DNA of 64,000 nucleotides from Candidatus Poribacteria bacterium (GCA_009839745.1 VXPE01000079.1:44762-108761), one strand, 5' to 3'. Shown: positions 12,137 to 27,068, numbered from the stretch's first letter. Made by a program: numbers and translations. Notes: a model not told the origin generated them from the sequence alone.

Positions 12137-14371
12137 TTGAAAAAAATGGAACATCAGATTAATCTACCCATCACTGGGATGCACTGCGAAAACTGTACAA
12201 GCACCATCACACGACATCTGAAAAAGATGGATGGTGTCCTTGCCGCAGAAGTTAGCCTCGCCACTGAATATGCGGCGGTTACCTTTGATGCGTCCACGCT
12301 CAGCGAGGAAACCATCGTCGATAAGATCCGAGATCTCGGTTTTGACGTTGTCGATGAAGGTGAAGAAGACACTGCCCGCGCTGCGGAATTCCAACGGCAA
12401 AAGAGGCAATTCACTGTCGGGATCATCTTCACGCTTCCACTCTTTCTCCTCAGTATGGGTAGAGATATGAATCTGTTAGGTGCGTGGGCATCAGCAGGCT
12501 GGGTTAACTGGTTCATGTTTGGCTTAGCATTACCGGTGCAGGGTTACGTTGCTTGGGACTATTACATCGGTGGTTTTAAAGCCTTGCGCCACGGATCCGC
12601 CAATATGGATGTCCTCGTCGCTATGGGTTCATCCGTAGCGTTCCTCTATAGCCTCGTTGTAACGATTGCATTGGGGATGGACGCAGGGACACGCTTTGGA
12701 ACCCACGTCTATTTTGAGACAGCCGCGGTTATCATTACGTTGATTAAGTTAGGGAAACTGATCGAAGCCCGCGCCAAAGGTAAGATAAACGCAGCCCTCA
12801 AAAAGCTCCCTCAACTGTCCCCCCAAATCGCGTGTCGCCTAAAAAACGGCGAAGAACAACACATCCCTATTGAACAGGTCGGCATAGGCGATGTCCTTCT
12901 CGTACGTCCCGGCGAAAGTATTCCTGTTGATGGTGTGGTGCGGAGCGGCAAAAGTGCCATTGATGAAAGCGTCTTCACCGGAGAAAGCCTGCCCGTGGAT
13001 AAGGGACCCGGCGACCCTGTGACCGCAGCAACGATGAATCAGAGCGGAATGCTTACAATGGAAGCCACGCATATCGGCGCAGAAACGGCACTTGCGCGTC
13101 TTGTCCAATTGGTCCAAACAACCCAACAGAGTAAACCACCCATCCAACGCGCCGCCGATGCGGTCACAAACGTGTTTGTGCCTATTGTCTCTGGGGTCGC
13201 CATTGTGACGTTTCTTGTGTGGTGGTTCCTCCTCGGAGAAGGCTTCACCCCAGCAATGCTCCGTTTAGTTGCGATCCTTGTCACAGCCTGCCCATGTGCG
13301 TTGGGACTCGCCACCCCAACCGCCGTTATGATGGGGACGGGTATCGGCGCACAGCGCGGCATCCTCTTCCGAAACGGCGAAGCACTCGAACGCGCGGGAG
13401 ACTTAACCACAATTGTCCTCGACAAAACAGGCACCTTGACAGAAGGGAAACTCAGGCTTACCGATATTCTCACGGATACAGACGCATCAGAACTCCTACA
13501 ACTATGTGCCGCCGCGGAGCGTGGCAGCGAACATCCCATCGGAAGGGCAGTTGTCCAAGCAGCTAAGGAACGTGGACTGGATATCACTACACCGAGCCAG
13601 TTTGAAGCCGTCACTGGGCACGGTATCACCGCACGGGTCGGTGAAAACAGCGTCATCATCGGCAATTTATCCTTAATTCAACAGCACAGCATTTCGACAA
13701 GGAGATTTGAAGAAGACGCAGCGCGTCTGCAGACCGAGGCGAAAACCGTCCTATGGGTCGCCATTGATGAGCAGGTTGCTGGACTTCTGGCGGTGGCGGA
13801 CACCTTGAAATCGGAAGCGCACGCTGCAGTCTCGGAACTCTACGAACTTGGATGTACTGTGGTAATGATGACTGGGGACAACCGCGTTACGGCTGATGTG
13901 ATCGCCAAGGCGGCGCGGATTGGCGATGTCATGGCAGAACTCAAACCCGAAGATAAAGCAGCCGCCGTTAAGCAGTTACAGGCGGAAAATGGTGGACTCG
14001 TCGCGATGGTAGGTGACGGTATCAACGATACCCCCGCATTGGCACAAGCCGATATCGGTATCTCCCTCGGCACCGGCACCGATATTGCCAGGGAGACAGC
14101 AGACGTGACGCTCATGCACAGCGATTTGCGTGGACTCCCCGATGCGATTCGGCTCAGCCGTGTGACGATGCGCACCATTAAACAGAACCTGTTCTGGGCG
14201 TTCTTCTACAATGTGCTTCTCATTCCTGTTGCAGCGGGTGCACTGTATCCACTCTCTTTTGTGCCGATGATGTTTCGGGAGTTACACCCGATGCTTGCAG
14301 CGTTCGCGATGGCGTTTAGCAGTGTATCTGTTGTGCTAAACAGCCTGCGTCTGCAATGGAAAAAGACATGA
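12137..14371 (+). CDS. copA: Copper-translocating P1B-type ATPase
   Basis: N-terminal HMA domain with GMHCENC. CPC motif (ACPCALG), DKTGTLT phosphorylation site and [10 protein letters not shown] hinge. Confidence 0.9.
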
Positions 14372-17300
14372 CATCTAATATCACTTACGGCACAATAGTT
14401 GAAGGTCCTCTATGGTCCGAGCCTGTTCAAGTTTTGGCTTACCATCCACTTCCTGATGGCGGTTTCCATATTGTCGGCACCCTTGCAAATTCGCAAGCAC
14501 CTATCAACGAGGAGATCACGGCAATAGAGGCGGGTGAATTACAGATTGCTCGGTCAGAAGTGAATTTTACCGGCAATGCGCGCCATGCTTTTCTCAGTCT
14601 TGAAGCGAAACGGTACCGATATGCAGCCCTTTACAATCCTACCTTCGCTATTAGTATCTCCAAAGTAGATCCACTGCCGCATCAAATTGAAGCCGTGTGG
14701 CAGGTTCTTAAGCAGACGCGTATCCGTTTCCTCATTGCTGATGATCCCGGGGCTGGTAAAACAATTATGGCAGGCCTCATAGCGAAGGAACTCAAACTCC
14801 GAAACCAGGTCAAACGTATACTGATTGTTGCCCCTGGACACCTAATCACACAATGGACCGAGGAGATGAACATACGATTTGAGGAGAATTTCATACATGT
14901 CACACGTGCCCTCGTCAACACCCATCCATACGAAAACGTCTGGAGTCGAGAACAACAACTAATCACCTCTATAGATTTTGCCCGACAGGATGAAATCCGC
15001 GGAGCAATCGCTAATACCCATTTCGACCTGGTTATTGTTGATGAAGCACATAAAATGGCGGCCTACCAATATGGAGATAAAGTTGAAAAAACCAAAAGGT
15101 ATCAGTTAGGTGAATGCCTCTCTAACTGCACGACACATCTTCTTTTTCTTACAGCAACACCGCATAGAGGAGACTCTGAGAACTTCCGACTCTTCCTTGA
15201 CCTCCTTGAACCCGGTTTTTTTGCAGACCCGATCCAAATCCAGGAATCGATTAAGAAAAACGACAATCCACTTTTCATCCGACGTGTGAAGGAAGACCTC
15301 AAAGATTTTGATGGGAAAAAACTATTCCTACCACGCCACGTTCAGACAAAGCCATTTCGTCTCGGTGCGGAATCCGAAAGTGAAATGGAGCTCTATAACG
15401 AGCTTTCCGAGTACATTCGTGAGCAATATAACAGGTTTTCCGAAAATTCACAGAAGCGACACAATATCGCATTCGCACTTGTCATCTTGCAGCGGCGACT
15501 TGCATCCAGCACCTACGCTCTGTCCGTTTCCCTCAAACGCCGACAACAACGTCTTAAAGAATTGCTGCAGAATGCCACACTCCACACGGACACTATTCCC
15601 ACTGAGCAGCAGCGTGATGAAGTAGAAGATCTCGGTGAAACCGAACGTTGGGAGCGCGAAGAACAGTGGGAGGTCCTCTCTGTTGCCGAAAATAGAGATG
15701 AGTTAAAAAATGAAATTGAGACCCTTAAACACCTTGAGCGGAAAGCAGAACGTATTATTGAAAGTGAAAGTGAAATTAAATTACAAGAACTCAACAAAGC
15801 ACTTGATGAATTAAACGCACGATATCCAAATCAAAAGATTCTTATCTTTACTGAATACTTTGATACGTTAGATTACTTGGAGCAGAAAGTAAAAGAATGG
15901 GGATTTTTCGTATCGACTATTCATGGAAAGATGCCGCATGAAAAACGGGTGGAGGTCCAACACACCTTCGAGAATGAAACACAGATCCTTATTGCAACGG
16001 AAGCCGCAGGTGAAGGTATAAACCTCCAATTCTGCCATTTGATGATTAATTACGACCTACCGTGGAATCCGAATCGTCTTGAACAGCGGATGGGACGGAT
16101 TCATCGCTATGGTCAAAAAAAAGAGGTTCACGTTATCAACCTTGTAGCTTCCGATACGCGGGAAGGGGCTGTCTTCACCCGTCTCTTTGACAAACTTGAT
16201 ACCATTCGGAGCGAACTCGGAACTGATCGCGTCTATGATGTTATTGGAGAACTTTTTCCCCAACGAAATCTGGCACAACTTATGCTTGGAGCCGCAGCAA
16301 ACACACGTGACCATACTCAACTTCTTCAGGAAATTGACACCGCCCTTGGTTCGGAGCAGTTAGATTTTTTTAAAAATTTCAACGAAGATACACTTGTCTC
16401 ACCTTATATCAATCTGCCTCAGGTGAGCGAACTCCAGCAACGACTGCGTGAGCATGGGCTTATCCCGGAGTATACACGCGAGTTCTTTCGGAAAACCTTT
16501 GAAACCCTCAATAGCACACTTCGCTCGCGCAAAGATGAGTTTTTCAGAATTGATCGCATCCCAATTCAAATAACAAGAATTAGTCAGGATACCCAATTCA
16601 AGCAGATGTACCCATCGTTAACACGCAAAAACTATCCGAAAGTAACATTTGATAAAGCCCATACAGCCACGGATTCAACGGTTGAATTCATCTCTTTCGG
16701 TCACTCGCTCTTTGAGGCGGTTCTCCACTATGTAGAAAAGGAATACACCGAGGATTTAAAAACAGGTGCCTGTTTCTCAGATCCAGATGGCAGATTCAAC
16801 GGCATTATCGCTTTCTATGAAGGTGAAATCCGAGATGGAACAGATACAACTGCAGGGAAACAACTTTTTGCTTTCTACCTGCCTCAAGATTCGGAGTCCA
16901 TGGAACAGATTAATCCGACAGTACTCTGGGATTTCCAAGAAGCGTCCCCAACATTAGAACCGATACAGATACAGGAACTTGAAGATAAGATAAGCGGGCA
17001 AGTACGCCTGCGTTTAGATGAATATAAGAAGGAACTTACTGAAGAACGGAAAAGACAAGTAGACATCAAAAGGAAATACGGCATCACCTCATTAGAGAGG
17101 CTCATCTTGAATCTGGATAGTGAGTTACTGGACCTCGCCATTAAAAGCGACAATGGAGAAGATGTCAAACGGCTGGTCCAAAACAAGACAGAACAAAAGG
17201 ATCGCTATGAGGATGAAATGAAGAAGTTAGAGCAATCCTGTCAGCGAGAAGTTACACTTGTTAGAAAGCCACCTGTCTTTACTGGAGCCATTCGTATCCG

Positions 17301-17718
17301 CCCTGCTATGGAGGGCGATGAGACAGAAACACCAATACACAATAGGTTGGAAATTGAACAAATTGGCATGCAGCATGCCATCCACCATGAAGAAGCACAA
17401 GGCTGTGTTGTAGAGGATGTCTCAGCAGAGAGTCTCGGTTTCGATCTGCGATCAAAAACACAAGATGGTAAAATTCGATGCATTGAGGTTAAAGCTCGGT
17501 CCGACCGTGCCCCCGTGGTTCTCACCTCTAACGAATGGTTCAGAGCAAAACAACTCAAAAATGACTATTTTCTCTATGTTGTCCTCAACGCTGCAACACA
17601 TCCTGAATCTTATATTATCCAAAACCCTGCAAGCCAGATAAGTGCCGTTCGACAGATTACAGAGGTAAGGTATCAGGTGCCGCTTTCGGAGATAACAAAA
17701 CGTCGCGAACCAGTTTAG
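14356..17718 (+). CDS. SNF2-family helicase with C-terminal DUF3883 (restriction-endonuclease-like) domain; probable start at ATG 14368 overlapping the copA stop
   Basis: SNF2_N motifs (DDPGAGKT Walker [18 protein letters not shown]) and Helicase_C motifs ([21 protein letters not shown]). C-terminal D...IEVK...YFLYVVLNA matches the DUF3883/PD-(D/E)xK pattern. Confidence 0.85.
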
Positions 17719-17882
17719 TTTCCTGTAACTCCCGTAGGTTGGGTTGAACAGATCCCCAAGATCAACGCTGTCCCACAGAAAATACGAGAACGCTCAAATA
17801 CACTCAATAGACAGCAAAACCAGTGAAACCCAACACTTGAGTTTGGACAAAAACTTCACATACCCTCTTTGAAAAAATCGAG

Positions 17883-17911
17883 TTGATGCTTTAAATTTAA
17901 CATGTTATAAT
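17883..17911 (+). promoter_or_regulatory. Near-consensus sigma70 promoter TTGATG-N17-TATAAT upstream of the TIR-like cassette
   Basis: -35 box at 17883-17888, 17-nt spacer, -10 TATAAT at 17906-17911. About 190-nt leader containing hairpin TCCCCC-TGATAA-GGGGGA (17965-17982). Confidence 0.45.
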
Positions 17912-18108
17912 AATCTAACATGAGTTTGATAAATACTGAGAGGCAGACGCATTCCCTCTTAAAGTCCCCCTGATAAGGGGGATTTAGGGGGTTAACTCCG
18001 TAAAAATAGCGTCTTTTTTCTTAAATGTACCTCTGTCTTGGTTTCTCGGACTTTTTTCAAACTGGCGTTAACCTAACATTAATTACATGAATAACATGGA
18101 AACTGCTA

Positions 18109-18534
18109 TTGGAGATCAGTATTGTGAAAACCTATAACCTTTTTATTAGTCATTCTTGGACCTATAGCGACGCGTACGAAAAATTGATTAATTTGTTAAC
18201 GAAAAGGTCATACTTTCCCTACCGTGATTATTCTGTTCCCAAAGATGATCCTCTACATACAAGTGGTACCGACAAAGCCCTTTATGCAGCGATAAAGAAA
18301 AAAGTAAGTCCTTGTAGTGTCGTATTGATATTAGCAGGCGTTTACGCAAGTTATAGCAAATGGATCGACAAAGAAATCCAAATGGCACAAACCGAATTTT
18401 TGTATCCTAAACCCATTCTTGCCATTGAATCGTGGGGCAGTGAAAAAACCTCTGTTAAAGTAAAAAATGCGGCAGATAAAATCGTTGGCTGGAACACAGA
18501 AAGCATTGTTTCCGGTATTCGGGAGTTGGCATAA
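18109..18534 (+). CDS. TIR-like domain protein (ThsB-like / DUF1863, MTH538 TIR-like fold); start may be GTG at about 18124
   Basis: LFISHSWTYSDAYEKL followed by CSVVLILAGVYASYSKWIDKEIQMA mirrors the ThsB pattern (VFFSFHY...TSVTCVLIGSQTFNRRWVRYEI). Lies in an AT-rich region. Confidence 0.65.
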   Translation: MEISIVKTYNLFISHSWTYSDAYEKLINLLTKRSYFPYRDYSVPKDDPLHTSGTDKALYAAIKKKVSPCSVVLILAGVYASYSKWIDKEIQMAQTEFLYPKPILAIESWGSEKTSVKVKNAADKIVGWNTESIVSGIRELA

Positions 18535-18536
18535 AC

Positions 18537-18974
18537 ATGGATGAAAAGCAGGAATTGTTAGAAATCTACAAACTCCACACGCAACTCGCAGACAATGTTA
18601 GCAATCGTCGTGCAACCGCGAACCGTTTTTATATACTGGTTTTGCCTGGGTTAGCAGTGCTTTTTTCCGCTTTCCTACAGCATGAAAACGGAGTACCACT
18701 CGGATGGCTTATGATAGGTTTCGGACTATTTGGTATGCTTTTAGCGGCAGCGTGGTATATTGTCATTCGCTCTTATCGCCAACTCAATTCTGGTAAATTT
18801 AAAGCGTTGCACGAATTGGAAGAAAAACTGGCTTATCCATTTTTTAAACGCGAATGGGAATTGCTTACGTTGTGTTTACATTCCATCATCAAAATCGTCC
18901 GGAAGTCAGTGCCTATCAGAATTTACGTCTATAGATCAAATGGATATTGCAGAACTATGGAAGCCTTGCCATGA
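18537..18974 (+). CDS. Small 2-TM protein, SLATT-like predicted membrane effector
   Basis: 145 aa. N-terminal helix, two hydrophobic helices (FYILVLPGLAVLFSAFL; LGWLMIGFGLFGMLLAAAWYIVI), then an amphipathic helix. The stop is 3 nt after the TIR-like gene start coupling; an overlapping alternative frame (18760-19008) leaves the 3' end uncertain. Confidence 0.45.
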   Translation: MDEKQELLEIYKLHTQLADNVSNRRATANRFYILVLPGLAVLFSAFLQHENGVPLGWLMIGFGLFGMLLAAAWYIVIRSYRQLNSGKFKALHELEEKLAYPFFKREWELLTLCLHSIIKIVRKSVPIRIYVYRSNGYCRTMEALP

Positions 18975-19218
18975 CTGGATCCGGAGCCACAATGTAAACA
19001 CTACCTAGTGAAGGAAAAGATTTCAAGAGTTATTGGAAACTGTCTGTTGTTGAGACCTTTATCCCTGGAATCTTTTTTTTCGTTTTTTTAGCATTGATGA
19101 TTGTTGGAATTTATTTGGAGATAATTGGTGCCGGCGGGACCCAATAAAAATTATCTGTCTTAATCACTTGATGAAGATTCACCTGATAGATCTAATTCTG
19201 AAAAAGGAGACCTAAACA

Positions 19219-19446
19219 ATGGCTCATGCAGTAAGTTATATTCCCTTCCATCGCGTGAGGAATTGGAAAGTGGGCGATAGGATCATCGTAGATGGAATTC
19301 CTGGGCAAATTCGTGATATTGCTGAATTTGAGAATCCCTCAGGAACCGGAGAGACAATTGCCTCCATCGGTGTCGTGTACGACAATGAACCCGGTGTAAT
19401 TAGACTTGTTGAGTATGATCGACACCAACTCAAACTTGAACGCTAA
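19219..19446 (+). CDS. Hypothetical 75-aa soluble protein
   Basis: AAGGAG RBS 8 nt upstream. No recognisable motif; lies within the AT-rich cassette. Confidence 0.4.
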   Translation: MAHAVSYIPFHRVRNWKVGDRIIVDGIPGQIRDIAEFENPSGTGETIASIGVVYDNEPGVIRLVEYDRHQLKLER

Positions 19447-19535
19447 CTACTATAAAAATCTGGAAAATCCTCAGCAAAAACCATTCACCATGGTAGGTTA
19501 GACAACCTTTTCACGATAATACATAAGGAATTAAG

Positions 19536-20417
19536 ATGGAACAACAGAACCAAGCGATATTGACGAGAGAGTTGTCTCAGCCGATTGCCGCTTGTGTTTT
19601 TTCTAAGGATGATTTGAAAAATCTTTGTGAAGTATTGCAAGAGTGGTCATTTAAAGCATCAGATGAGGAAATAAAACATTACAGTCCACTCAATCGAACA
19701 CCAGAACAATTTAGTGCAGATATTACAGCACTGAAGTCTGGTTTTGAACTAAAGGTGACTGTACAAGGAATAGATGATGAAAGGATTTATGGAACGATCT
19801 CAGATGTATTTAACTCTCCTCGTTTTCCTGATCAGGTTAAAACACTTTACATCAATAGTGAATCAGATTTAAGAAATTTGTACAATTGGTTCCCCAGAAA
19901 TCGATTTGAACTGTTATTAGATTTCACAAAACCCGAACTTTTCAATTTATCACTATTATCCTCCAGAGCTACACCAAACGCCAGCAACATAAATGTTTCT
20001 GGATTAGATTCCACGTGGGTTAGTGGTGTATATGGTGAAATCGCAAATTTTATTGAGAAAAATAGAACACGTCGCGGTTTTTTTCATAGACATAGCATTT
20101 ATGATTTGTTTCTTCTTCTCATAGGACTCCCGTTCGCTTTTTGGATGGCATACAAATTATCAGGACCGATAAACAGCATATTTGGTGAATTTTCTGTATT
20201 CGTTCAAAATGGAGCCTATGTTTGTCTGTTCTTCTTGATGTTACACTTACTCAAAATACTGTTTGACTATGCCAGATGGATTTTTCCCATTGTTGAGTAC
20301 AAAAGTTCAGCAGATAATGCAGGCAAACATAGATACATCTTGGGGGGTTTAATAATAGCGATTTTCGGGAATTTCCTTTACGATCTATTTAAATTTGCTG
20401 CTGCTCTAATCCCATAA
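19536..20417 (+). CDS. Hypothetical protein: about 170-aa soluble N-domain plus C-terminal 3-4 TM helices
   Basis: AT-rich ORF. C-terminal hydrophobic helices (LFLLLIGLPFAFWMAY; AYVCLFFLMLHLLKILF; ILGGLIIAIFGNFLYDLF). No recognised family. Confidence 0.45.
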   Translation: MEQQNQAILTRELSQPIAACVFSKDDLKNLCEVLQEWSFKASDEEIKHYSPLNRTPEQFSADITALKSGFELKVTVQGIDDERIYGTISDVFNSPRFPDQVKTLYINSESDLRNLYNWFPRNRFELLLDFTKPELFNLSLLSSRATPNASNINVSGLDSTWVSGVYGEIANFIEKNRTRRGFFHRHSIYDLFLLLIGLPFAFWMAYKLSGPINSIFGEFSVFVQNGAYVCLFFLMLHLLKILFDYARWIFPIVEYKSSADNAGKHRYILGGLIIAIFGNFLYDLFKFAAALIP

Positions 20418-20460
20418 ACTTAAGCTCCTTTTCCTAAAAATTCCTTGTTAAACAATAAAT

Positions 20461-20489
20461 TTGACAATTAAGTCGCTATCTGGTATCAT
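20461..20489 (+). promoter_or_regulatory. Sigma70-like promoter TTGACA-N17-TATCAT upstream of the methyltransferase
   Basis: Direct reading: -35 at 20461-20466, -10 at 20484-20489, about 32 nt before the start at 20522. Confidence 0.45.
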
Positions 20490-20521
20490 ATCCGCAATTT
20501 TGTGAATGAATGGATTTATAG

Positions 20522-23201
20522 ATGAGTAAAAACAAACGTATCATTGAAGTCGCCTTCCCCGTCGAGGAGGTCAGTAAACAAGGTCGCGGCAAAAACCAAA
20601 TCTCTGGAATCCACAAATGGTGGGCACGCCGTCCCCTCGGGCCCTCGCGCGCTACGGCTTACGCTGCGCTTGTAGACAGCGATTTATCCCCCCCCTGCTT
20701 TACAAAAGATAAGTAATTCAGGCGTTGATGGAACGCTAACTCCACCTAAACACGATTTCATCGCCGAACTCGCCAAGTGGGAGAATGCCCTCAAACCTCT
20801 CTGGATTCAGCAAGCAAAAGAAGATATTCTGGAATCTCACAATAGTAAGGCTCCTAAAGTGCTGGATCCTTTTGGTGGACGCGGTTCTATTCCCTTAGAA
20901 GCACAACGGCTTGGCTGTGAAACTCATTCTTGTGACATCAACCCTGTTGCTATTCTAATTCAGAAATGTACGCTTGAATATCCACAAAAATATGGGCAAC
21001 GTCTCTATGATGATGTTAAGAAATGGGGCGAACATATCCTCGCCGAGGTGACCGAGGAGTTACACCCGTTCTATCCGAAAGACTCCGACGGCTCCGAGAT
21101 TTACGCCTACATCTGGGCCCGTACCCTTCCGTGTCAAAACCTAACCTGCAGTGCCGAAATTCCACTTATTAGCCAGTTTTGGTTGGCAAAAAAGACAAAA
21201 ATACAGAGGAAGAAAAAGATTACCCTCCTTCCTTATGAAGAAAAGGGACAGATTGCTTTTAATATAGTTGGGAACGGTTACAAATCAATGCCGGAAGATT
21301 TTAATCCCCAAAGTGGTACAGTCACTGATGCTAAGGTTACTTGTCCACTCTGTAAAAATACAATATCTGATACGGAGACACCCAGTCTCTTCCGAGACGG
21401 AGAAGCAGACGAAAGGTTGCTTGTTGTTGTTACCAAACACCAACAGAATAAAAATAAACAGTATCGTCTTGCAACGGAGGCGGATAAGGAGGTGTTCAGT
21501 GCCGCGAAGAACAAACTTTCTGAAAAAGAGAAGGAACTTGCTGTTAAATGGGGAGTTAGCCCCATACCAAATGAGGAGACCCCGAGCAATAAAGTATTGG
21601 GCTTCAGAATTAGTAATTACAATCTAAATACTTGGGGTGAACTCTTCAATGAGCGCCAACAACTCTCCCTCATCACCTTTACCGAGAAAATTAGAGAAGC
21701 ATACCCACAGATGCTTTCCCAAGAAAACTACAGTCCCGACTACGCCCAAGCAGTCTCTACTTATCTTGGGCTCTGGCTTAGTTCCATAGCGATGCGATCA
21801 GCAAACCTTTGTCGATGGGGAAATACGACTGAATCAGTTGTAGAAATGTTTGGTATGCAAACCGTGCCAATGGTCTGGGACTACGGAGAAGCAAATTCTG
21901 TAGATGTAGCGGTTAATCGGTTAAAGAGTTTGTTAAAGCCTATGACTCACTTGTGTCAGATGAACGACGAACCTGTTACTATACAATGCTCCTCGGTAAC
22001 GGATCTACCATATCCTGAGAATACCTTCGATGCTGTGCTAACGGATCCACCCTATTACGACAACATCCCCTACGCCTATCTCTCCGATTTTTTTTACGTA
22101 TGGCTAAGACGGAGTATTGGAACTCTCTATCCGAAACTCTTTGAAACGGATTTAACTCTCAAAGATGAAGAAATCGTGGCGTATAGTCACCATGCCGGTG
22201 GAAAACAGGGCGGAAAAGTGTTTTTTGAAACAGAACTCTCCAAAGCCTTCAAAGAGATGCATCGCGTGCTAAGACCCAACGGCATCGCTGTCATCGTTTA
22301 TGCCCATAAATCCACCGAAGGTTGGGAAACTCTGATTAACGCCCTATTGGACTCAGGACTTGTGGTGACAGGAGCGTGGCCAATTGATACAGAGATGAAA
22401 TCTCGTCAGCGATCATTGGACTCCGCAGCCCTTGCCTCCTCTATCTACATGGTAGCGCGCAAAAGAGAGCGGGAAGCGTTCGGGATCTATCAGGATGTAA
22501 AAAAAGAGTTAGATATCTATCTTGAACAGAAACTCTTTACCTTATGGGAATGGGGTTTCTCTGGTGCCGATCTGTTTATTGCGGCAATTGGTATTGGTAT
22601 TGAGGTATTTGGGAAATACGAAACAGTCATTGATGACGATGACAACCTCATTCGCGCAGATAGGATAATAGGGGACATCAGGGAAATATTGGAGCATTTC
22701 GATGGTGAACAAGCGGGCATAGCTGGTACACGGCTCACACGATTCTACCTCCGCTGGCGGCGGGAACACGGAGAAAAATCGGTAATTTTTAACGATGCGC
22801 GCGAACTCGCGCTCTCCCTCGGTATTGAACTCATAGAAGAGTGGGGGGAAGACAGCTTTATCCAGCAGGAGAAAACAAACGTGCGCGTGTTAGGTCCGCA
22901 AGAACGGGAACAGACTGACCTCTCTAAGCGTGAGGAGCTGATTGATGTTCTGCACCATGTGTTGCTGTTATGGCGTTCGGGGAACCGGGCTGAGATGGTC
23001 CAACGGCTTTCAAAAGATCGTATCGGTATAAACGAACTGATATGGAATGTCGCACAGCAAATCAGTGCAGCACTCCCAACAGATAGCCAAGAACGCCAAT
23101 GGCTTGAAGCATGGCTGGCAGACCGGGATACTATTCAGCGCGAAGTACAAAATCTTTTAGAAACGCCTGAAGAGGGAACATTGTTTTTAATCGCAGATTG
23201 A
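20522..23201 (+). pseudogene. DUF1156/COG1743 Zn-ribbon N6-adenine DNA methyltransferase, interrupted by a frameshift in a C8 homopolymer (20688-20695). One fewer C restores an 893-aa ORF.
   Basis: N-terminal piece (20522-20716) carries the DUF1156 signature IEVAFPVEEVS...HKWWARRPL. The downstream piece (GTG 20859) has motif I VLDPFGGRGSIPLEA, Zn-ribbon cysteines, and motif IV VLTDPPYYDNIPY. I translated the 140 nt between the pieces by hand in the downstream frame and it is open (…PPALQKISNSGVDGTLTPPKHDFIAELAKWENALKPLWIQQAKEDILESHNSKAPK). Confidence 0.8.
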
Positions 23202-23259
23202 TGCAAGTGAAATCCAATATAGAATAGAATCGGAGATAGGCACAGCCTAACAGGAAACC

Positions 23260-26106
23260 ATGCTATGGAAGAATGGAAAAGGAGTACTCATGAGATTACC
23301 TCCCTTTGAAACCATCGCGAAACCGCACAACGATATATTGAAAGGCAGGTTTACGGCAGACACTTATGCTGCAAGACTTGGACGAGTCGTCAAAAATGAG
23401 GGCCCCCTTGAGTACAGAAACGCCCAGCGGTTTTTTGAGAGGACACACGAGACAAATGGATTGATGTCTCTCCTAAATGGTGTAGAAGGTCGTTTGAAAG
23501 GACGCAATCGGCAAAACCAAGATCCAATCGTCCAACTCCAGACCCCCTTCGGCGGCGGAAAAACGCACACGCTCATTTCGCTCTACCATAAGGCAAAAGA
23601 GTGGAACGCTCTCCCTGTAGTGATTGTCGGATCAGACATGGACCCCGGACAGGGAGATACCTTTTGGGGATCTATTGAGCAGCAACTCACGGGCGGTCTC
23701 CAACGTTTTAAAAAGCAAGTCGCCCCGGGCACAGAGAGTCTCTCCGAGATGTTCACTGATACGAAACAACCGGTACTCATCTTGATGGACGAAGTGCTGA
23801 ACTATCTTGAACGTGCCGCGGGGGTACCAATTCAGAAAAGCACATTAGCAGAACAGACTCTGGCATTTATGCTGTCCTTAACAGAAGCAGTTGCATCTAA
23901 CAATAATATCGCTTTTATTGTGACTCTACAAGAGAGTGAAGTCGCACCGATTGAAGATAAGTATTCACTCTTCACTGATCTCCTCACACGCATGAGACGC
24001 GTGGTCACCCCGGTTGAAGATGCCGAAATCGCCAGTATCATTCGGAAACGGCTTTTCGGAGAGGTTAACCTCAATGAAGTCAAGCGGATGGCTCGGGAAT
24101 TCGCAAAATACGCCAGACAGGAGAGTATTCTTCCGCCCGGCATTCAAGAATCCGAATATCGCAAACAATTCGTGGAAAGTTATCCGTTCCAGCCCGAAGT
24201 TATTGATGTCCTCTATCAGAGGTGGGGGAGTTTCCCGAACTTCCAGCGAACCCGGGGAGTGCTTAGGTTTCTCTCACGCGTTGTCCATCGCGTAAGCGGT
24301 AAAAACCGACCCTACATCACGCTCGCAGATTTTGACCTCACTGACAGCGACATCCGTGATGAACTCTTAGAGCACATTGATGCCCCCTACCGAGGGATCA
24401 TCGCCAGTGATATCACAGGACGCACTGCCGGTGCGAAAGCCGTTGACACAAAATTGGGAGGCACTTATCAACATTTGGCATTAGGCACGCGCACCGCGAC
24501 TGCTATCTTTCTCTATTCTTTTACAGGCGGCATGGAACGGGGAGCAAAATTGGATGAGATCAAACGGAGTGCAGCCGTTCTGGAACATCCCTCGGCTATC
24601 GTAGATACAGTAAAACACCTGCTCACTGAACACCTCTTTTACCTCCGCACTGAGAACGGGACTTCCTATTTTGACACCCAACCCAACTTAAGACGAATTG
24701 TGCAGACCCGAATGGACAATATTGACGATAAAGTTGTGGCGGGACGCAACAGTACACAACTTCGGAAGAGTTTCAAATCGAGTGGGTATCTTAAAACCTA
24801 CATTGCGCCAAAAGATGGAACGGATATTCGCGATACCGACGACTTAAAACTCATTGTGTTATCCAAACGAGATGACGCGTTTTGCCAAAACCTCGTAGAG
24901 AATCGCGGTGAAACACCGCGTATCTATCGCAACACCCTATTTTTCATTATTCCATCCGCCGGGGAAGCGAACCAATTAAAGACAGAAGTTAAATCAGTGA
25001 TCGCTCACGAGGAAATTAAGAAAGATAATTCCCTAAATTTATCAACTACTCAGAAAAAAGAGATTGATACTGCATTAAAACAGTCTGATAGTGCGTTAGA
25101 GAATGCAGTGCGTCAGGATTACCGCATTGTTCTGATACCAACAAAAGAGGGATTTCGTGAGGAAGATCTTGGGTTGCCCGCCGCTGGTATGAGTACCCCG
25201 TTTGATGAAACAGTCTATGAGATGCTCCGTGTGAAGTCTGAAATTTTAACAAGCATTGGACCTCGAAATATCTCAATCCGCTATCTGAAGGATAATGATA
25301 CTGTGTCAACCTCACAGTTGTTCCACTCCAGCCTTCGTTCCCCGGGTGAAACGCGTGTGCTCCGCGAGGCATGGATAAACGGCATCCGTCAGGGGGTTCA
25401 GGATGGACTCTTTGCACTTGGAGAGAAAGCAGGCGGCAAACTCGTTCCACGCTACTTTAAAGAACTCCCATTAGAAGTTACTTTGGACAACGACGAAGTC
25501 ATTATACAACCTAACCTCATTCGGGAAAGTATTACGTCAGAAGACATTTTACGGGACTATCTAATGGACAACAAGGCGGTCTCAACCTCTCAGCCGTTCC
25601 AATACAACCAGCAATCCACTAACGAGCCGCGATCGCTTCGCAGTACTTGGGAGATGGCAATCCGTGAAGGTATCCAAAAAGGCACATTTGGGATCGGGGA
25701 TAAACTGGGCGCTGAAGTCATTCCACGTGCTTTCAGGGAAGAAACTCCACCTATTACCTTGAACGATAACGAGGTTCTCATCCAGGCATCACTTTGCACG
25801 AGGCTGATTGCCCATCCACCACAACCAGACTTAAGACCAGCAGGAAATCAAAGTGGTCCGGAGACACCGCCGCCTGATCCAGGATCGACATCAGCAGCAA
25901 ATCTGCCTCGGAAATCAATTGGCATCCGATTTACATTACCGCAAGGGAAGGTAAGCAACGTGGCACAGCATTTCAACCAATTGCAAACCAACTTTCAAAA
26001 CATGCAAATTGAACTAAAAGCCTCCGATGGTGAAATCTCACAAGATGCTTACGAGGAACTTAAGGAGAATTTACGGGCATTAGGAATTGAGATTGAGGAA
26101 ATATAA
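23260..26106 (+). CDS. DUF499/COG1483-family P-loop ATPase (methyltransferase-associated)
   Basis: Walker A LQTPFGGGKTHTLISLYH. About 950 aa. C-terminal region holds an internal tandem duplication of an ~85-aa module (VSTSQLFHSS...DNDEVIIQ / VSTSQPFQYN...NDNEVLIQ). Confidence 0.75.
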   Translation: MLWKNGKGVLMRLPPFETIAKPHNDILKGRFTADTYAARLGRVVKNEGPLEYRNAQRFFERTHETNGLMSLLNGVEGRLKGRNRQNQDPIVQLQTPFGGGKTHTLISLYHKAKEWNALPVVIVGSDMDPGQGDTFWGSIEQQLTGGLQRFKKQVAPGTESLSEMFTDTKQPVLILMDEVLNYLERAAGVPIQKSTLAEQTLAFMLSLTEAVASNNNIAFIVTLQESEVAPIEDKYSLFTDLLTRMRRVVTPVEDAEIASIIRKRLFGEVNLNEVKRMAREFAKYARQESILPPGIQESEYRKQFVESYPFQPEVIDVLYQRWGSFPNFQRTRGVLRFLSRVVHRVSGKNRPYITLADFDLTDSDIRDELLEHIDAPYRGIIASDITGRTAGAKAVDTKLGGTYQHLALGTRTATAIFLYSFTGGMERGAKLDEIKRSAAVLEHPSAIVDTVKHLLTEHLFYLRTENGTSYFDTQPNLRRIVQTRMDNIDDKVVAGRNSTQLRKSFKSSGYLKTYIAPKDGTDIRDTDDLKLIVLSKRDDAFCQNLVENRGETPRIYRNTLFFIIPSAGEANQLKTEVKSVIAHEEIKKDNSLNLSTTQKKEIDTALKQSDSALENAVRQDYRIVLIPTKEGFREEDLGLPAAGMSTPFDETVYEMLRVKSEILTSIGPRNISIRYLKDNDTVSTSQLFHSSLRSPGETRVLREAWINGIRQGVQDGLFALGEKAGGKLVPRYFKELPLEVTLDNDEVIIQPNLIRESITSEDILRDYLMDNKAVSTSQPFQYNQQSTNEPRSLRSTWEMAIREGIQKGTFGIGDKLGAEVIPRAFREETPPITLNDNEVLIQASLCTRLIAHPPQPDLRPAGNQSGPETPPPDPGSTSAANLPRKSIGIRFTLPQGKVSNVAQHFNQLQTNFQNMQIELKASDGEISQDAYEELKENLRALGIEIEEI

Positions 26107-27068
26107 CTCTCCACTGCTTCCAATACCTGTTCCACTGTAATCCCCGCAATCACTTCACAGCTACCAGCACCGCATCCCCCCGGATACCGCCCCGGATGGC
26201 AAGGATTGCAACCCAGATTTATCCCGCTCTGCAAAACTGTATGTGGGGCGCCGTAGGGACCGCTCCGAATATGGCTCGTTGAACCGAAAAGCGCAACGAC
26301 AGGTGTTCCGACAGCGGCTGCGATATGCATCGGTCCCGTGTCATTTCCAATATACACATCACACGCAGAGATGAGTGCCGCGAGGTGTCGAAGATCGTCC
26401 GTTTGGACGAGCATGGGGGGGACATCCATCTTTTCCGCGACCTGTGCTTGGAGGGCTCGCTCATTCGGACCCGCAAAGAGTAAAATCGTTGCATTGCGCT
26501 TCTTTGCTAAAATGCTCGCGACCTCCGCATAGTTCTTTCCGTCCCACAACTTATATTCCCAGTTCCCACCGGGATGGATCCCGATTAGCAACCCTTCTGA
26601 TTTAAGACCTCCCTCGGCAAGAAAATTATGTGCAGCAGTCCGCTCCACTTCCGTCAATGCTACGAGTGGATGTGCATTGGTTGTGTCAACGCCTTGTCTC
26701 TGAAGCACTTCTAAATATCGAGTGACAGCATGGCGATTGCTTTCACGGCGTGCCATCCCCCAGTGTTCCGCGCCGATACATCGCGCCATCAGACTGTCGC
26801 GTAGGTTGACAACGAGATCGAATTTCTCAAGTCGTAAGGTTCTGATGAGACGCAGTCTCCCTTTCCAACCGGCGTGTTCGCCTTGATTGTCATAAATGAG
26901 CGTTGCATCAATATTGGGATCCGTCGCAAGCAGGTCAAACGCTCGCGGTCCGACAAGGAAGGTAATGTGAGCATCTGGGAAGTGTTTTCGCAGTGGTTGG
27001 ATAACGGAAGTAGACAGGACCGCATCACCGATAAAAGAGAAACTAAAGACGAGAATTTTCTTCAGCAT
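26049..27068 (-). CDS. Glycosyltransferase family 9 (ADP-heptose:LPS heptosyltransferase-like)
   Basis: N-terminal KILVFSFSFIGDAVLSTSVIQPL and C-terminal ...IGNDTGPMHIAAAVGTPVVALFG are GT9 hallmarks. Its 3' end overlaps the DUF499 gene end convergently. Confidence 0.8.
   Translation of the reverse strand: MLKKILVFSFSFIGDAVLSTSVIQPLRKHFPDAHITFLVGPRAFDLLATDPNIDATLIYDNQGEHAGWKGRLRLIRTLRLEKFDLVVNLRDSLMARCIGAEHWGMARRESNRHAVTRYLEVLQRQGVDTTNAHPLVALTEVERTAAHNFLAEGGLKSEGLLIGIHPGGNWEYKLWDGKNYAEVASILAKKRNATILLFAGPNERALQAQVAEKMDVPPMLVQTDDLRHLAALISACDVYIGNDTGPMHIAAAVGTPVVALFGSTSHIRSGPYGAPHTVLQSGINLGCNPCHPGRYPGGCGAGSCEVIAGITVEQVLEAVESYISSISIPNARKFSLSSS

Follow-up and report, generated by a model that had tools for sequence, protein, structure and literature searches.

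A probably phase-variable Hma defence locus in a Candidatus Poribacteria genome

The locus described here lies in a 64,000-nucleotide (nt) stretch of DNA from a Candidatus Poribacteria bacterium (GCA_009839745.1, VXPE01000079.1:44762-108761), hereafter referred to as the window. Positions 14368-26106 hold a Hma system, formed from hmaA, a group of cargo genes, hmaB and hmaC. The preferred explanation, held with good confidence, is that this system occupies a fixed site and that its methylase gene, hmaB, is phase-variable through a conserved hypermutable run of C residues, the gene being OFF (out of frame) in this genome. On the sequence data the methylase, and with it the whole Hma defence, is probably phase-variable. 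Taken together, the evidence argues against a pure artefact and against simple decay of the gene. The core features are as follows, lengths being given in amino acids (aa) and ORF denoting an open reading frame.

14368-17718, + strand: hmaA, SNF2 helicase with a C-terminal PD-(D/E)xK nuclease (NOV_C/DUF3883), 1116 aa from the ATG at 14368 (Pfam, PADLOC)
20522-20716, + strand: N-terminal piece of hmaB, DUF1156 helical domain, a 64-aa ORF with a premature stop (Pfam, PADLOC)
20688-20695, + strand: poly-C (C8) tract in the linker joining the hmaB domains, where the +1 frameshift falls and slipped-strand switching is proposed (sequence, relatives' tracts)
20676-23201, + strand: core of hmaB, N6-adenine methylase with a Zn-ribbon insert and C-terminal helical domains (PADLOC, motifs)
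23260-26106, + strand: hmaC, DUF499 AAA+ ATPase, 948 aa (Pfam, PADLOC)

The hmaB gene is split at a conserved, length-variable poly-C tract

The hmaB gene is split by a +1 frameshift within the C8 tract, which corresponds to codons 56-58 of 892, and is therefore not present as a single intact reading frame. Deleting one C gives an 892-aa HmaB that aligns with full-length homologues over 99-100% of its length. The frame of the core is open from 20676, and its first start codon, GTG at 20859, gives a 780-aa ORF identical to NCBI MXV84968.1 (Candidatus Poribacteria bacterium). Close homologues are similarly often annotated without the DUF1156 N-terminus; some start MVGTPSPR... in the other frame, through poly-proline, and others start MLDPFGG, as here. 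The initial annotation had spoken of a methylase to be repaired. A frameshift is indeed present; that annotation gave it no place or cause, and the break proves to be a length-variable homopolymer that is conserved in relatives.

In 15 distinct related loci the corresponding place in the linker holds a pure C run, with lengths of C7, C8, C9, C10, C11, C12 and C24. Most of these loci have no other C/G run of at least 7 in 13-22 kb, and of the 25 such runs counted over 335 kb of related loci, 15 are at this site. The tracts of the Poribacterial relatives occur in all three frames. Of 113 hmaB loci spread over many phyla, 7 are out of frame and 6 of these carry the run; the other 106 are in frame and lack it. 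Tract-bearing clusters formed at 90% identity gave 16 ON (in frame) versus 28 OFF (approximately 36% in frame) with both OFF frames represented, and two tract-free clusters from the same data sources gave 9 ON and 0 OFF (Fisher p = 4.6e-4 against the tract-bearing clusters). A scan of JGI metagenome contigs with a Poribacteria-clade profile returned distant relatives only, at most 52% identical, which provide an in-frame, tract-free control.

Tract length also differs between sequences that are otherwise the same. The sister-sample scaffolds L154 and L155 show no difference across 12,200 bp apart from the tract, which is C9 in one and C11 in the other; a third assembly also has C9. At the protein level the ON allele P0243 (C8, L165) is 100% identical over 834 aa to the OFF allele P0001 (C9, L063), and P0259 (ON) is 99.9% identical to P0026 (OFF). 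Outside the tract, the members of these three pairs thus show 0-1 differences. In-frame tracts include C10 in ctg22285_498x_c and C8 in ctg764554_36x_l. In the literature searched, neither phase variation nor homopolymers are mentioned for Hma or for DUF1156 methylases.

The OFF alleles retain the hallmarks of a constrained gene. The ratio of non-synonymous to synonymous substitution rates (dN/dS) between them lies between 0.07 and 0.17 in the core and between 0.02 and 0.33 in the DUF1156 piece, and is also low at low divergence (dS 0.05 and 0.29). The core ORFs of OFF alleles are open for 806-818 codons. By this measure both halves of hmaB are under purifying selection, with a dN/dS of approximately 0.1, and the OFF alleles are not decaying.

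Alternative explanations for the out-of-frame tract

One alternative is that RNA polymerase slippage or ribosomal frameshifting on the C run produces a fixed, low amount of full-length HmaB. The tract would then set the dose of the methylase, which is compatible with switching at the DNA level, and this is taken as a genuine if minor possibility. In bacteria, homopolymers of about nine or longer can give rise to transcriptional slippage, the linker in which the tract lies is tolerant of change, and slippage would also explain the purifying selection on OFF alleles. However, transcriptional slippage is best documented for A/T runs, and the tract differs in length between identical haplotypes, so that change at the DNA level certainly occurs.

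It is also conceivable, though doubtful, that the tract-bearing DUF1156 methylases are mainly phase-variable epigenetic regulators (a phasevarion) and not the self-marking arm of a restriction system. A 4.0-Mb Poribacteria contig (ctg6232l) carries six hmaB paralogues. Two of these (L162 7808-10481 and L163 7741-10379) are orphan DUF1156 methylase genes flanked by housekeeping genes; neither hmaA nor hmaC occurs within 8 kb of them, and both are split out of frame at the same poly-C site (C8 and C9). Such copies speak for a regulatory role, whereas in the window and in most syntenic relatives hmaB stands between an intact hmaA and an intact hmaC. Given six paralogues in one genome and an out-of-frame tract in both of the orphans inspected, a phasevarion-like role is therefore possible for some copies.

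A third alternative is that hmaB is a dead pseudogene in a decaying locus, its frameshift and the insertion in the neighbouring 8xMP cargo gene (see below) being steps of erosion. Two disruptions do lie within 2 kb of each other, about two-thirds of tract-bearing alleles are out of frame, and one relative (L005) is further truncated at codon 543. Decay is nevertheless unlikely. The dN/dS between OFF alleles is approximately 0.1 on both sides of the tract, even at a dS of 0.05-0.29, and nearly all downstream frames are open for more than 800 codons. In-frame alleles that are 100% and 99.9% identical to OFF alleles exist, hmaA and hmaC are intact, and the homopolymer stays pure though synonymous sites are saturated.

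The frameshift could finally be a homopolymer error of sequencing or assembly, in which case hmaB would be intact and nothing would be switched. Homopolymers are the main site of indel errors in long-read data, and the state of the window hangs on one base. Related HiFi contigs of 3-4x coverage are full of frameshifts; in these (L063, ctg499197_4x_l; L064, ctg347791_3x_l) copA, hmaA and hmaC are fragmented and single-base indels are unreliable. Against this, tract calls agree between independent assemblies: a JGI assembly and three from Logan all give the same out-of-frame C8, ENA and Logan share an out-of-frame C9, and C10 is read both in a circular contig of 498x, where it is in frame, and in one of 10x. 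A 5.5-Mb contig (L157) is also out of frame, no frameshift occurs in tract-free relatives drawn from these data sources, and the remaining ORFs of the window are long and intact. NCBI, Logan and ENA (two contigs) all list the 780-aa ORF to which the OFF state gives rise. As this ORF starts 3' of the tract and the tract DNA of the window was read in one copy, the OFF state of the window is supported only indirectly. An error at this site is considered improbable as an account of the data.

Several points weigh against a phase-variable hmaB as the preferred reading. One C8 run was found in the 64 kb where 1.45 were expected by chance; statistical significance of the C8 from the window alone was therefore rejected, and its significance comes only from the comparison with relatives. 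An OFF share of approximately 64% of alleles fits random drift of tract length, and also an often-dispensable gene. Three of the related contigs (L063, L064 and L165) are HiFi contigs of 3-6x with obvious indel errors, and some tract lengths are possibly off by one. Switching within one population, the defining property of phase variation, is inferred from the comparison of alleles. In addition, HmaB was described as an m5C methylase in the original PADLOC paper (PMC8565338), whereas its DPPY motif points to N6-adenine or N4-cytosine methylation, and overexpression of HmaB left T4 infectivity unchanged (PMC11232893). Experiments on Hma show HmaA acting alone only, and the roles of HmaB and HmaC, together with methylation-based self/non-self discrimination, would be parts of a model.

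Identity of the locus as a Hma system

The three genes are all encoded on the + strand and are clustered within 11.7 kb in the ORF inventory. The longest hmaA ORF runs from 14356, and the ATG at 14368 is used as its start. The protein matches the Pfam families SNF2-rel_dom (1.1e-14), ResIII (9.1e-17) and Helicase_C (2.1e-27), followed by NOV_C of the DUF3883 family (2.6e-19, residues 1000-1088), and matches the PADLOC profile HmaA (5.6e-203) over 8-1094 of 1120. The helicase motifs are GAGKT at 128, DEAH at 225 and QRMGRIHR at 573. The nuclease residues are intact: D1026, in D(GFDLRS), E1040-x-K1042 (E-V-K) and E1056 are the counterparts of the residues mutated in an earlier study (PMC11232893).

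The methylase is recognized on both sides of the frameshift. The 64-aa piece matches Pfam DUF1156 (2.7e-11) and PADLOC HmaB (3.1e-9), and the core matches HmaB (2.4e-106) with the motifs DPFGGRGS, CQNLTC, CPLC and DPPY. HmaC matches Pfam DUF499 (6.7e-39) and PADLOC HmaC (2.4e-108), and contains a Walker A motif, GGGKTH, at 98-103 and a Walker B motif, LILMDE, at 173-178.

Hma, formed from HmaA, HmaB and HmaC, received its name from PADLOC, which listed it as a candidate for defence and recorded it in 26 phyla (Payne et al. 2021; PMC8565338), and was re-described in 2026 as a Type-1 DUF499-centred BREX-related (BR) system (PMC12839542). In E. coli, T4 is blocked by HmaA alone through the nickase activity of NOV_C (PMC11232893). 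Type-1 systems are distinguished by an active C-terminal restriction endonuclease in the helicase, and the NOV_C catalytic residues are present here. No ORF of the locus matches DUF3780 in Pfam, which places the locus in Type-1 and not in the Type-2 or Type-3 BREX-related systems. The locus is thus a Hma system (Type-1 DUF499-centred BREX-related), an already known kind of which the Poribacteria copy is a new member.

The initial annotation had read this region as a restriction-modification (RM)-like defence locus, which the literature on Hma supports. The three large + strand ORFs are found where it had placed them. The domains it assigned to each were recovered: SNF2, Helicase_C and a C-terminal DUF3883 PD-(D/E)xK domain in the helicase by Pfam and PADLOC profiles, the DUF1156 N-terminus, Zn-ribbon cysteines (CQNLTC, CPLC) and DPPY in the methylase, and an ATPase of about 950 aa with GGGKTH. 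It had made its reading depend on recovery of these domains and on co-occurrence of the genes; all of the profiles were recovered, and all three genes are present in 44 of 50 related hmaB loci, counting only those with sufficient flank. It knew of no name or experimentally demonstrated mechanism for the system. On this point it can be updated: the system has a name and some experimental support (PMC8565338, PMC12839542, PMC11232893).

A DISARM or canonical BREX system in place of Hma is so improbable that it may be dismissed: the helicase does match DrmD (6.5e-149) and BrxHI/BrxHII (1e-114 to 1e-120), and the methylase and ATPase weakly match PglX and BrxC, but Hma profiles are the best PADLOC-DB match for each of the three proteins, NCBIfam DrmD reaches 394 bits against a cut-off of 610, and the ATPase scores 134 bits for DUF499 versus 18.6 bits for DUF6079/BrxC. 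Between the flanking genes, copA and a glycosyltransferase family 9 (GT9) gene, there is no DrmA, DrmB (DUF1998) or DrmC, and with the DrmD equivalog below threshold DISARM was ruled out. There is similarly no PglZ or BrxA/B, and no further large ORF, in this interval; BREX was ruled out on this ground and on the DUF499 type of the ATPase.

Cargo between hmaA and hmaB

The position between hmaA and hmaB is a documented insertion hotspot for other defence genes (bioRxiv 10.1101/2024.01.29.577857; PMC11232893). Genes are embedded between the hma genes in 62.7% of curated Hma systems, many of them encoding defence systems (bioRxiv 10.1101/2024.01.29.577857). Among related loci, between 8 and 4283 nt separate hmaA from hmaB. 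In the window the cargo consists of four ORFs, which encode a 136-aa ThsB-type TIR protein, an 8xMP membrane protein, a 75-aa protein and a 293-aa protein. The 8xMP gene is interrupted by an element resembling a miniature inverted-repeat transposable element (MITE).

18124-18534, + strand: ThsB-type TIR-like protein, 136 aa from the GTG used by relatives (Pfam, PADLOC, PHROG)
18537-18867, + strand: 5' part of the gene for the 8xMP membrane protein, PF24838 (Pfam 8xMP, 5.9e-27)
18868-19005, no strand assigned: MITE-like insertion of 138 nt in the 8xMP gene (alignment to relatives breaks here)
19008-19147, + strand: 3' part of the 8xMP gene, shifted to another frame (comparison with relatives)
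19219-19446, + strand: embedded 75-aa ORF (conserved in the lineage)
19536-20417, + strand: embedded 293-aa ORF with an N-terminal alpha/beta domain followed by long C-terminal hydrophobic helices (lineage-restricted)

The longest ORF of the TIR gene begins at TTG 18109. Its product matches Pfam ThsB_TIR (1.2e-14), PADLOC ThsB (1.3e-10) and phrog_6988 (1.5e-38), and is 95-96% identical in two relatives (L063 and L145). The 5' part of the 8xMP gene covers profile positions 1-103 of 136, and the intact proteins of relatives are 154-157 aa long. The MITE-like element has imperfect 15-nt terminal inverted repeats (CGTTGTGTTTACATT / GGTAGTGTTTACATT) and is bordered by a TA target-site duplication (18866-18867 and 19006-19007). 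Removal of 18868-19007 restores an intact 156-aa 8xMP ORF. A 61-nt part of the element recurs on the opposite strand at a different place in L064 (8020-7960), and the element therefore appears to be mobile in the lineage. In the preferred explanation, the putative TIR and 8xMP module is inactivated here by this MITE-like insertion.

The 8xMP gene is the constant element of the cargo and, with 77-95% identity among relatives, is more conserved than HmaB. The 75-aa ORF accompanies it even where the TIR gene is absent. This ORF is 84-92% identical in four relatives (L063, L064, L006 and L149) and 54% identical in L150, where it has an 89-aa form, and it has no match in Pfam, PADLOC, NCBIfam or PHROG. 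The 293-aa ORF is found only in Poribacteria-type sequences. The composition of the cargo differs between relatives: L150 (5991-9831) carries 8xMP, GmrSD_N (DUF262), an 89-aa and a 396-aa protein, L154 (6912-9570) carries DUF3892, TIR, 8xMP, the 75-aa and the 293-aa protein, and L064 (7460-9803) carries DUF3892, 8xMP and further ORFs.

The pairing of TIR and 8xMP is also found outside Poribacteria. A search of plasmids with tblastn identified distant homologues of 8xMP on plasmids of Polaromonas and Haematospirillum, with a small ThsB-type TIR gene directly 5'. As the pairing recurs in this way, TIR and 8xMP look like a recurrent two-gene module, and they are a candidate two-gene defence module. 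The loci compared were the window (18124-19147), L160 (3525-4465), L161 (3561-4456) and L159 (346-4453). The Polaromonas pair adjoins a type I HsdR gene and a PIN protein, and in Rhizobium the gene next to 8xMP encodes an NB-ARC STAND protein in place of the TIR. PADLOC-DB v2 has no entry for the pair. Intact pairs lie in L145 (8332-9209) and on Polaromonas pH8NP2. The 8xMP protein has no sequence match in the PDB and no match in NCBIfam or PHROG, a homologue search returned close Poribacteria relatives only, and nothing of relevance to the 8xMP family emerged from a literature search.

Close homologues of the TIR protein, also matching phrog_6988, occur beside other partners. Salmonella houtenae (L166 4001-5375; 63% identity) has a caspase-like Peptidase_C14 protein as the partner, with a RES-domain gene nearby. 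The partner in the temperate Clostridium phage phiCDKH01 (L167 2983-4015; 41% identity) is an M78 peptidase, beside the integrase.

Chromosomal setting and transcription

The order of genes is copA, hmaA, variable cargo, hmaB, hmaC and a convergent GT9 gene. The flanking genes and the promoter-like sites are listed below.

12137-14371, + strand: copA-like P-type metal ATPase, context (ORF; the genes of syntenic relatives match Pfam HMA, E1-E2_ATPase and Hydrolase)
17883-17911, + strand: promoter-like site upstream of the cargo, TTGATG-17-TATAAT with TG (consensus match only)
20461-20489, + strand: promoter-like site of hmaB-hmaC, TTGACA-17-TATCAT with TG (TGgTATCAT; 11 of 12 consensus positions)
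26049-27068, - strand: GT9 gene, context (ORF; the gene of syntenic relatives matches Pfam Glyco_transf_9)

The nearest genome matches are Poribacteria metagenome-assembled genomes, and the synteny from copA to GT9 is kept in diverged relatives of the Poribacteria lineage, even where HmaB is only about 59-75% identical. Window positions 13177-14360 are 95% identical to the copA end of L145. GC content is approximately 0.52-0.56 in copA, 0.42-0.49 in the hma genes and 0.35-0.42 in the cargo. The best explanation is that the Hma locus is a long-term resident of a fixed chromosomal site in the genome of this sponge symbiont.

The copA stop (TGA, 14369-14371) overlaps the hmaA start at 14368 in the sequence ATGA (14368-14371), an overlap already pointed out in the initial annotation, and relatives share this tight junction. 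hmaA appears to be translationally coupled to the housekeeping gene copA. A second variable slot is found at this junction in L145 (1346-4710) and L006 (1384-4733), where genes for a 196-aa protein and a 923-aa DEAD/ResIII helicase lie between copA and hmaA. At the other end, the 3' ends of hmaC and GT9 converge and overlap by 58 nt (26049-26106), and relatives do likewise, for example L145 (15397-15454).

A sigma-70-like motif lies about 30 nt upstream of hmaB and is conserved in 10 relatives (L145, L149, L154, L006, L064, L002, L024, L005, L150 and L152). This suggests that hmaB-hmaC may form a transcription unit apart from copA-hmaA and the cargo. As hmaB has its own conserved promoter-like motif, the cargo would therefore sit between two transcription units, and in the preferred explanation it is separately promoted. 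The promoter and terminator scan of the cassette was not enriched over shuffled sequences, and the number of sites like that at 17883-17911 in the region does not exceed chance; of the scan's results only the conserved hmaB motif was retained. An Rfam search of 14000-26500 found no family match.

Proposed mechanism and implications

From the literature on the protein families, HmaB would methylate N6-adenine in host DNA, and so mark it, at a motif that its Zn-ribbon/target recognition domain (TRD) insert recognizes. HmaC, an ORC/STAND-like AAA+ ATPase with winged helix-turn-helix domains and an RNA recognition motif, may assemble or license the complex on unmarked DNA, and HmaA would move along DNA with its SNF2 motor and nick it with its PD-(D/E)xK nuclease. 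A change in the length of the C run, most simply by slipped-strand mispairing, would move hmaB between one in-frame and two out-of-frame states. The tract falls within the variable linker that joins the helical DUF1156 domain to the Rossmann core, where gain or loss of a proline should be tolerated. Some full-length HmaB may also arise through transcriptional slippage on the C run.

OFF alleles stand beside intact hmaA and hmaC, and loss of HmaB is therefore presumably non-lethal, the nuclease arm sparing unmethylated self DNA when HmaB is absent. By analogy with BREX and Type I/III RM, restriction probably needs HmaB as a subunit. A wider joint claim can be made, which is given an even chance of holding as a whole. 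It states that the run is a true contingency tract, with Hma and orphan DUF1156 methylases phase-variable in Poribacteria, the first case for Hma, and with the OFF alleles as natural knock-outs; that HmaB would be a targeting subunit in the manner of BREX or Type III RM and not one half of a two-enzyme RM system; and that TIR and 8xMP would be an undescribed two-gene membrane-effector module for defence, recurring on proteobacterial plasmids.

The three-gene system itself adds little, since Hma is catalogued, widespread and partly validated. What the locus does contribute is the conserved, length-variable poly-C in hmaB, the TIR and 8xMP cargo disrupted by the MITE-like element, and the fixed chromosomal site. 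Wild ON and OFF alleles of hmaB beside intact hmaA and hmaC provide natural genetic variants through which the roles of HmaB and HmaC can be approached. A comparison of methylomes and viromes between ON and OFF strains could reveal whether self DNA is marked by HmaB and whether HmaB is required for restriction, and HiFi kinetics data probably exist for many of these sponge metagenomes. The TIR and 8xMP pair is a cheap candidate for defence testing. If the reading of a phase-variable hmaB is true, phase-variable defence and methylation would extend from pathogens and Streptomyces to uncultured sponge symbionts with several such methylases per genome.

Comparison with known systems

The closest known system is Hma (Type-1 BR) itself, with which the locus shares the same three proteins, their architectures, the gene order and the embedding of genes between hmaA and hmaB. 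The DUF499 ATPase likewise has no HEPN fusion, and the methylase has the TRD/Zn-ribbon insert. The locus differs in the conserved, length-variable poly-C tract that is out of frame in the window hmaB, and in the apparent translational coupling of hmaA to copA. It differs also in its four embedded ORFs and split hmaB, as the published survey allowed at most three embedded genes and no pseudogenes (bioRxiv 10.1101/2024.01.29.577857), a rule that is an operational filter and not a biological criterion. Loci like that of the window would therefore have been filtered out of the survey and missed.

The small ThsB-family TIR of the cargo, followed directly by a putative effector gene, is reminiscent of Thoeris. 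It differs in that the partner, 8xMP, has no SIR2, Macro or SLOG domain and is disrupted here. Membership of Thoeris was rejected for the cassette, in which ThsB_TIR is present and Pfam finds no ThsA-type domain in any ORF.

DISARM class 1 (DrmD, DrmMI, DrmA, DrmB, DrmC) resembles the locus in its DrmD-related SNF2 helicase and its adenine methylase, but the window has no DrmA, DrmB (DUF1998) or DrmC and the DrmD cut-off is not reached. Type 3 BREX (BrxHII, PglXI, BrxC, PglZ, BrxA, BrxF) has a homologous helicase, methylase and ATPase (PADLOC; PMC12839542), whereas the window has no PglZ, BrxA or BrxF, and its ATPase is of the DUF499 and not the DUF6079 type. Its methylase also has a DUF1156 N-terminus, and its helicase a C-terminal nuclease predicted to be of the active type.

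With regard to the switch, the phase-variable tract of Pgl, the type 2 BREX system of Streptomyces coelicolor, is a G run. The likeness lies in a BREX-family methylase gene, pglX, with a toggled frame that turns defence ON and OFF. Pgl differs in that it is formed from PglW/X/Y/Z with a methylase of another family, and switching in the window is deduced from comparative data. Disruptions of pglX are frequent, and phase variation has been proposed as a general mode of BREX regulation (PMC9122589).

The phasevarions of Type I and Type III RM systems offer the second parallel. Their methylase genes have a simple-sequence repeat near the 5' end, occur in all three frames in natural isolates and are kept intact as ORFs by selection, all of which resembles what is found for hmaB. 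They differ from it in methylase family and partners, and in their host-adapted bacteria, whereas the host of the window locus is an uncultured sponge symbiont.

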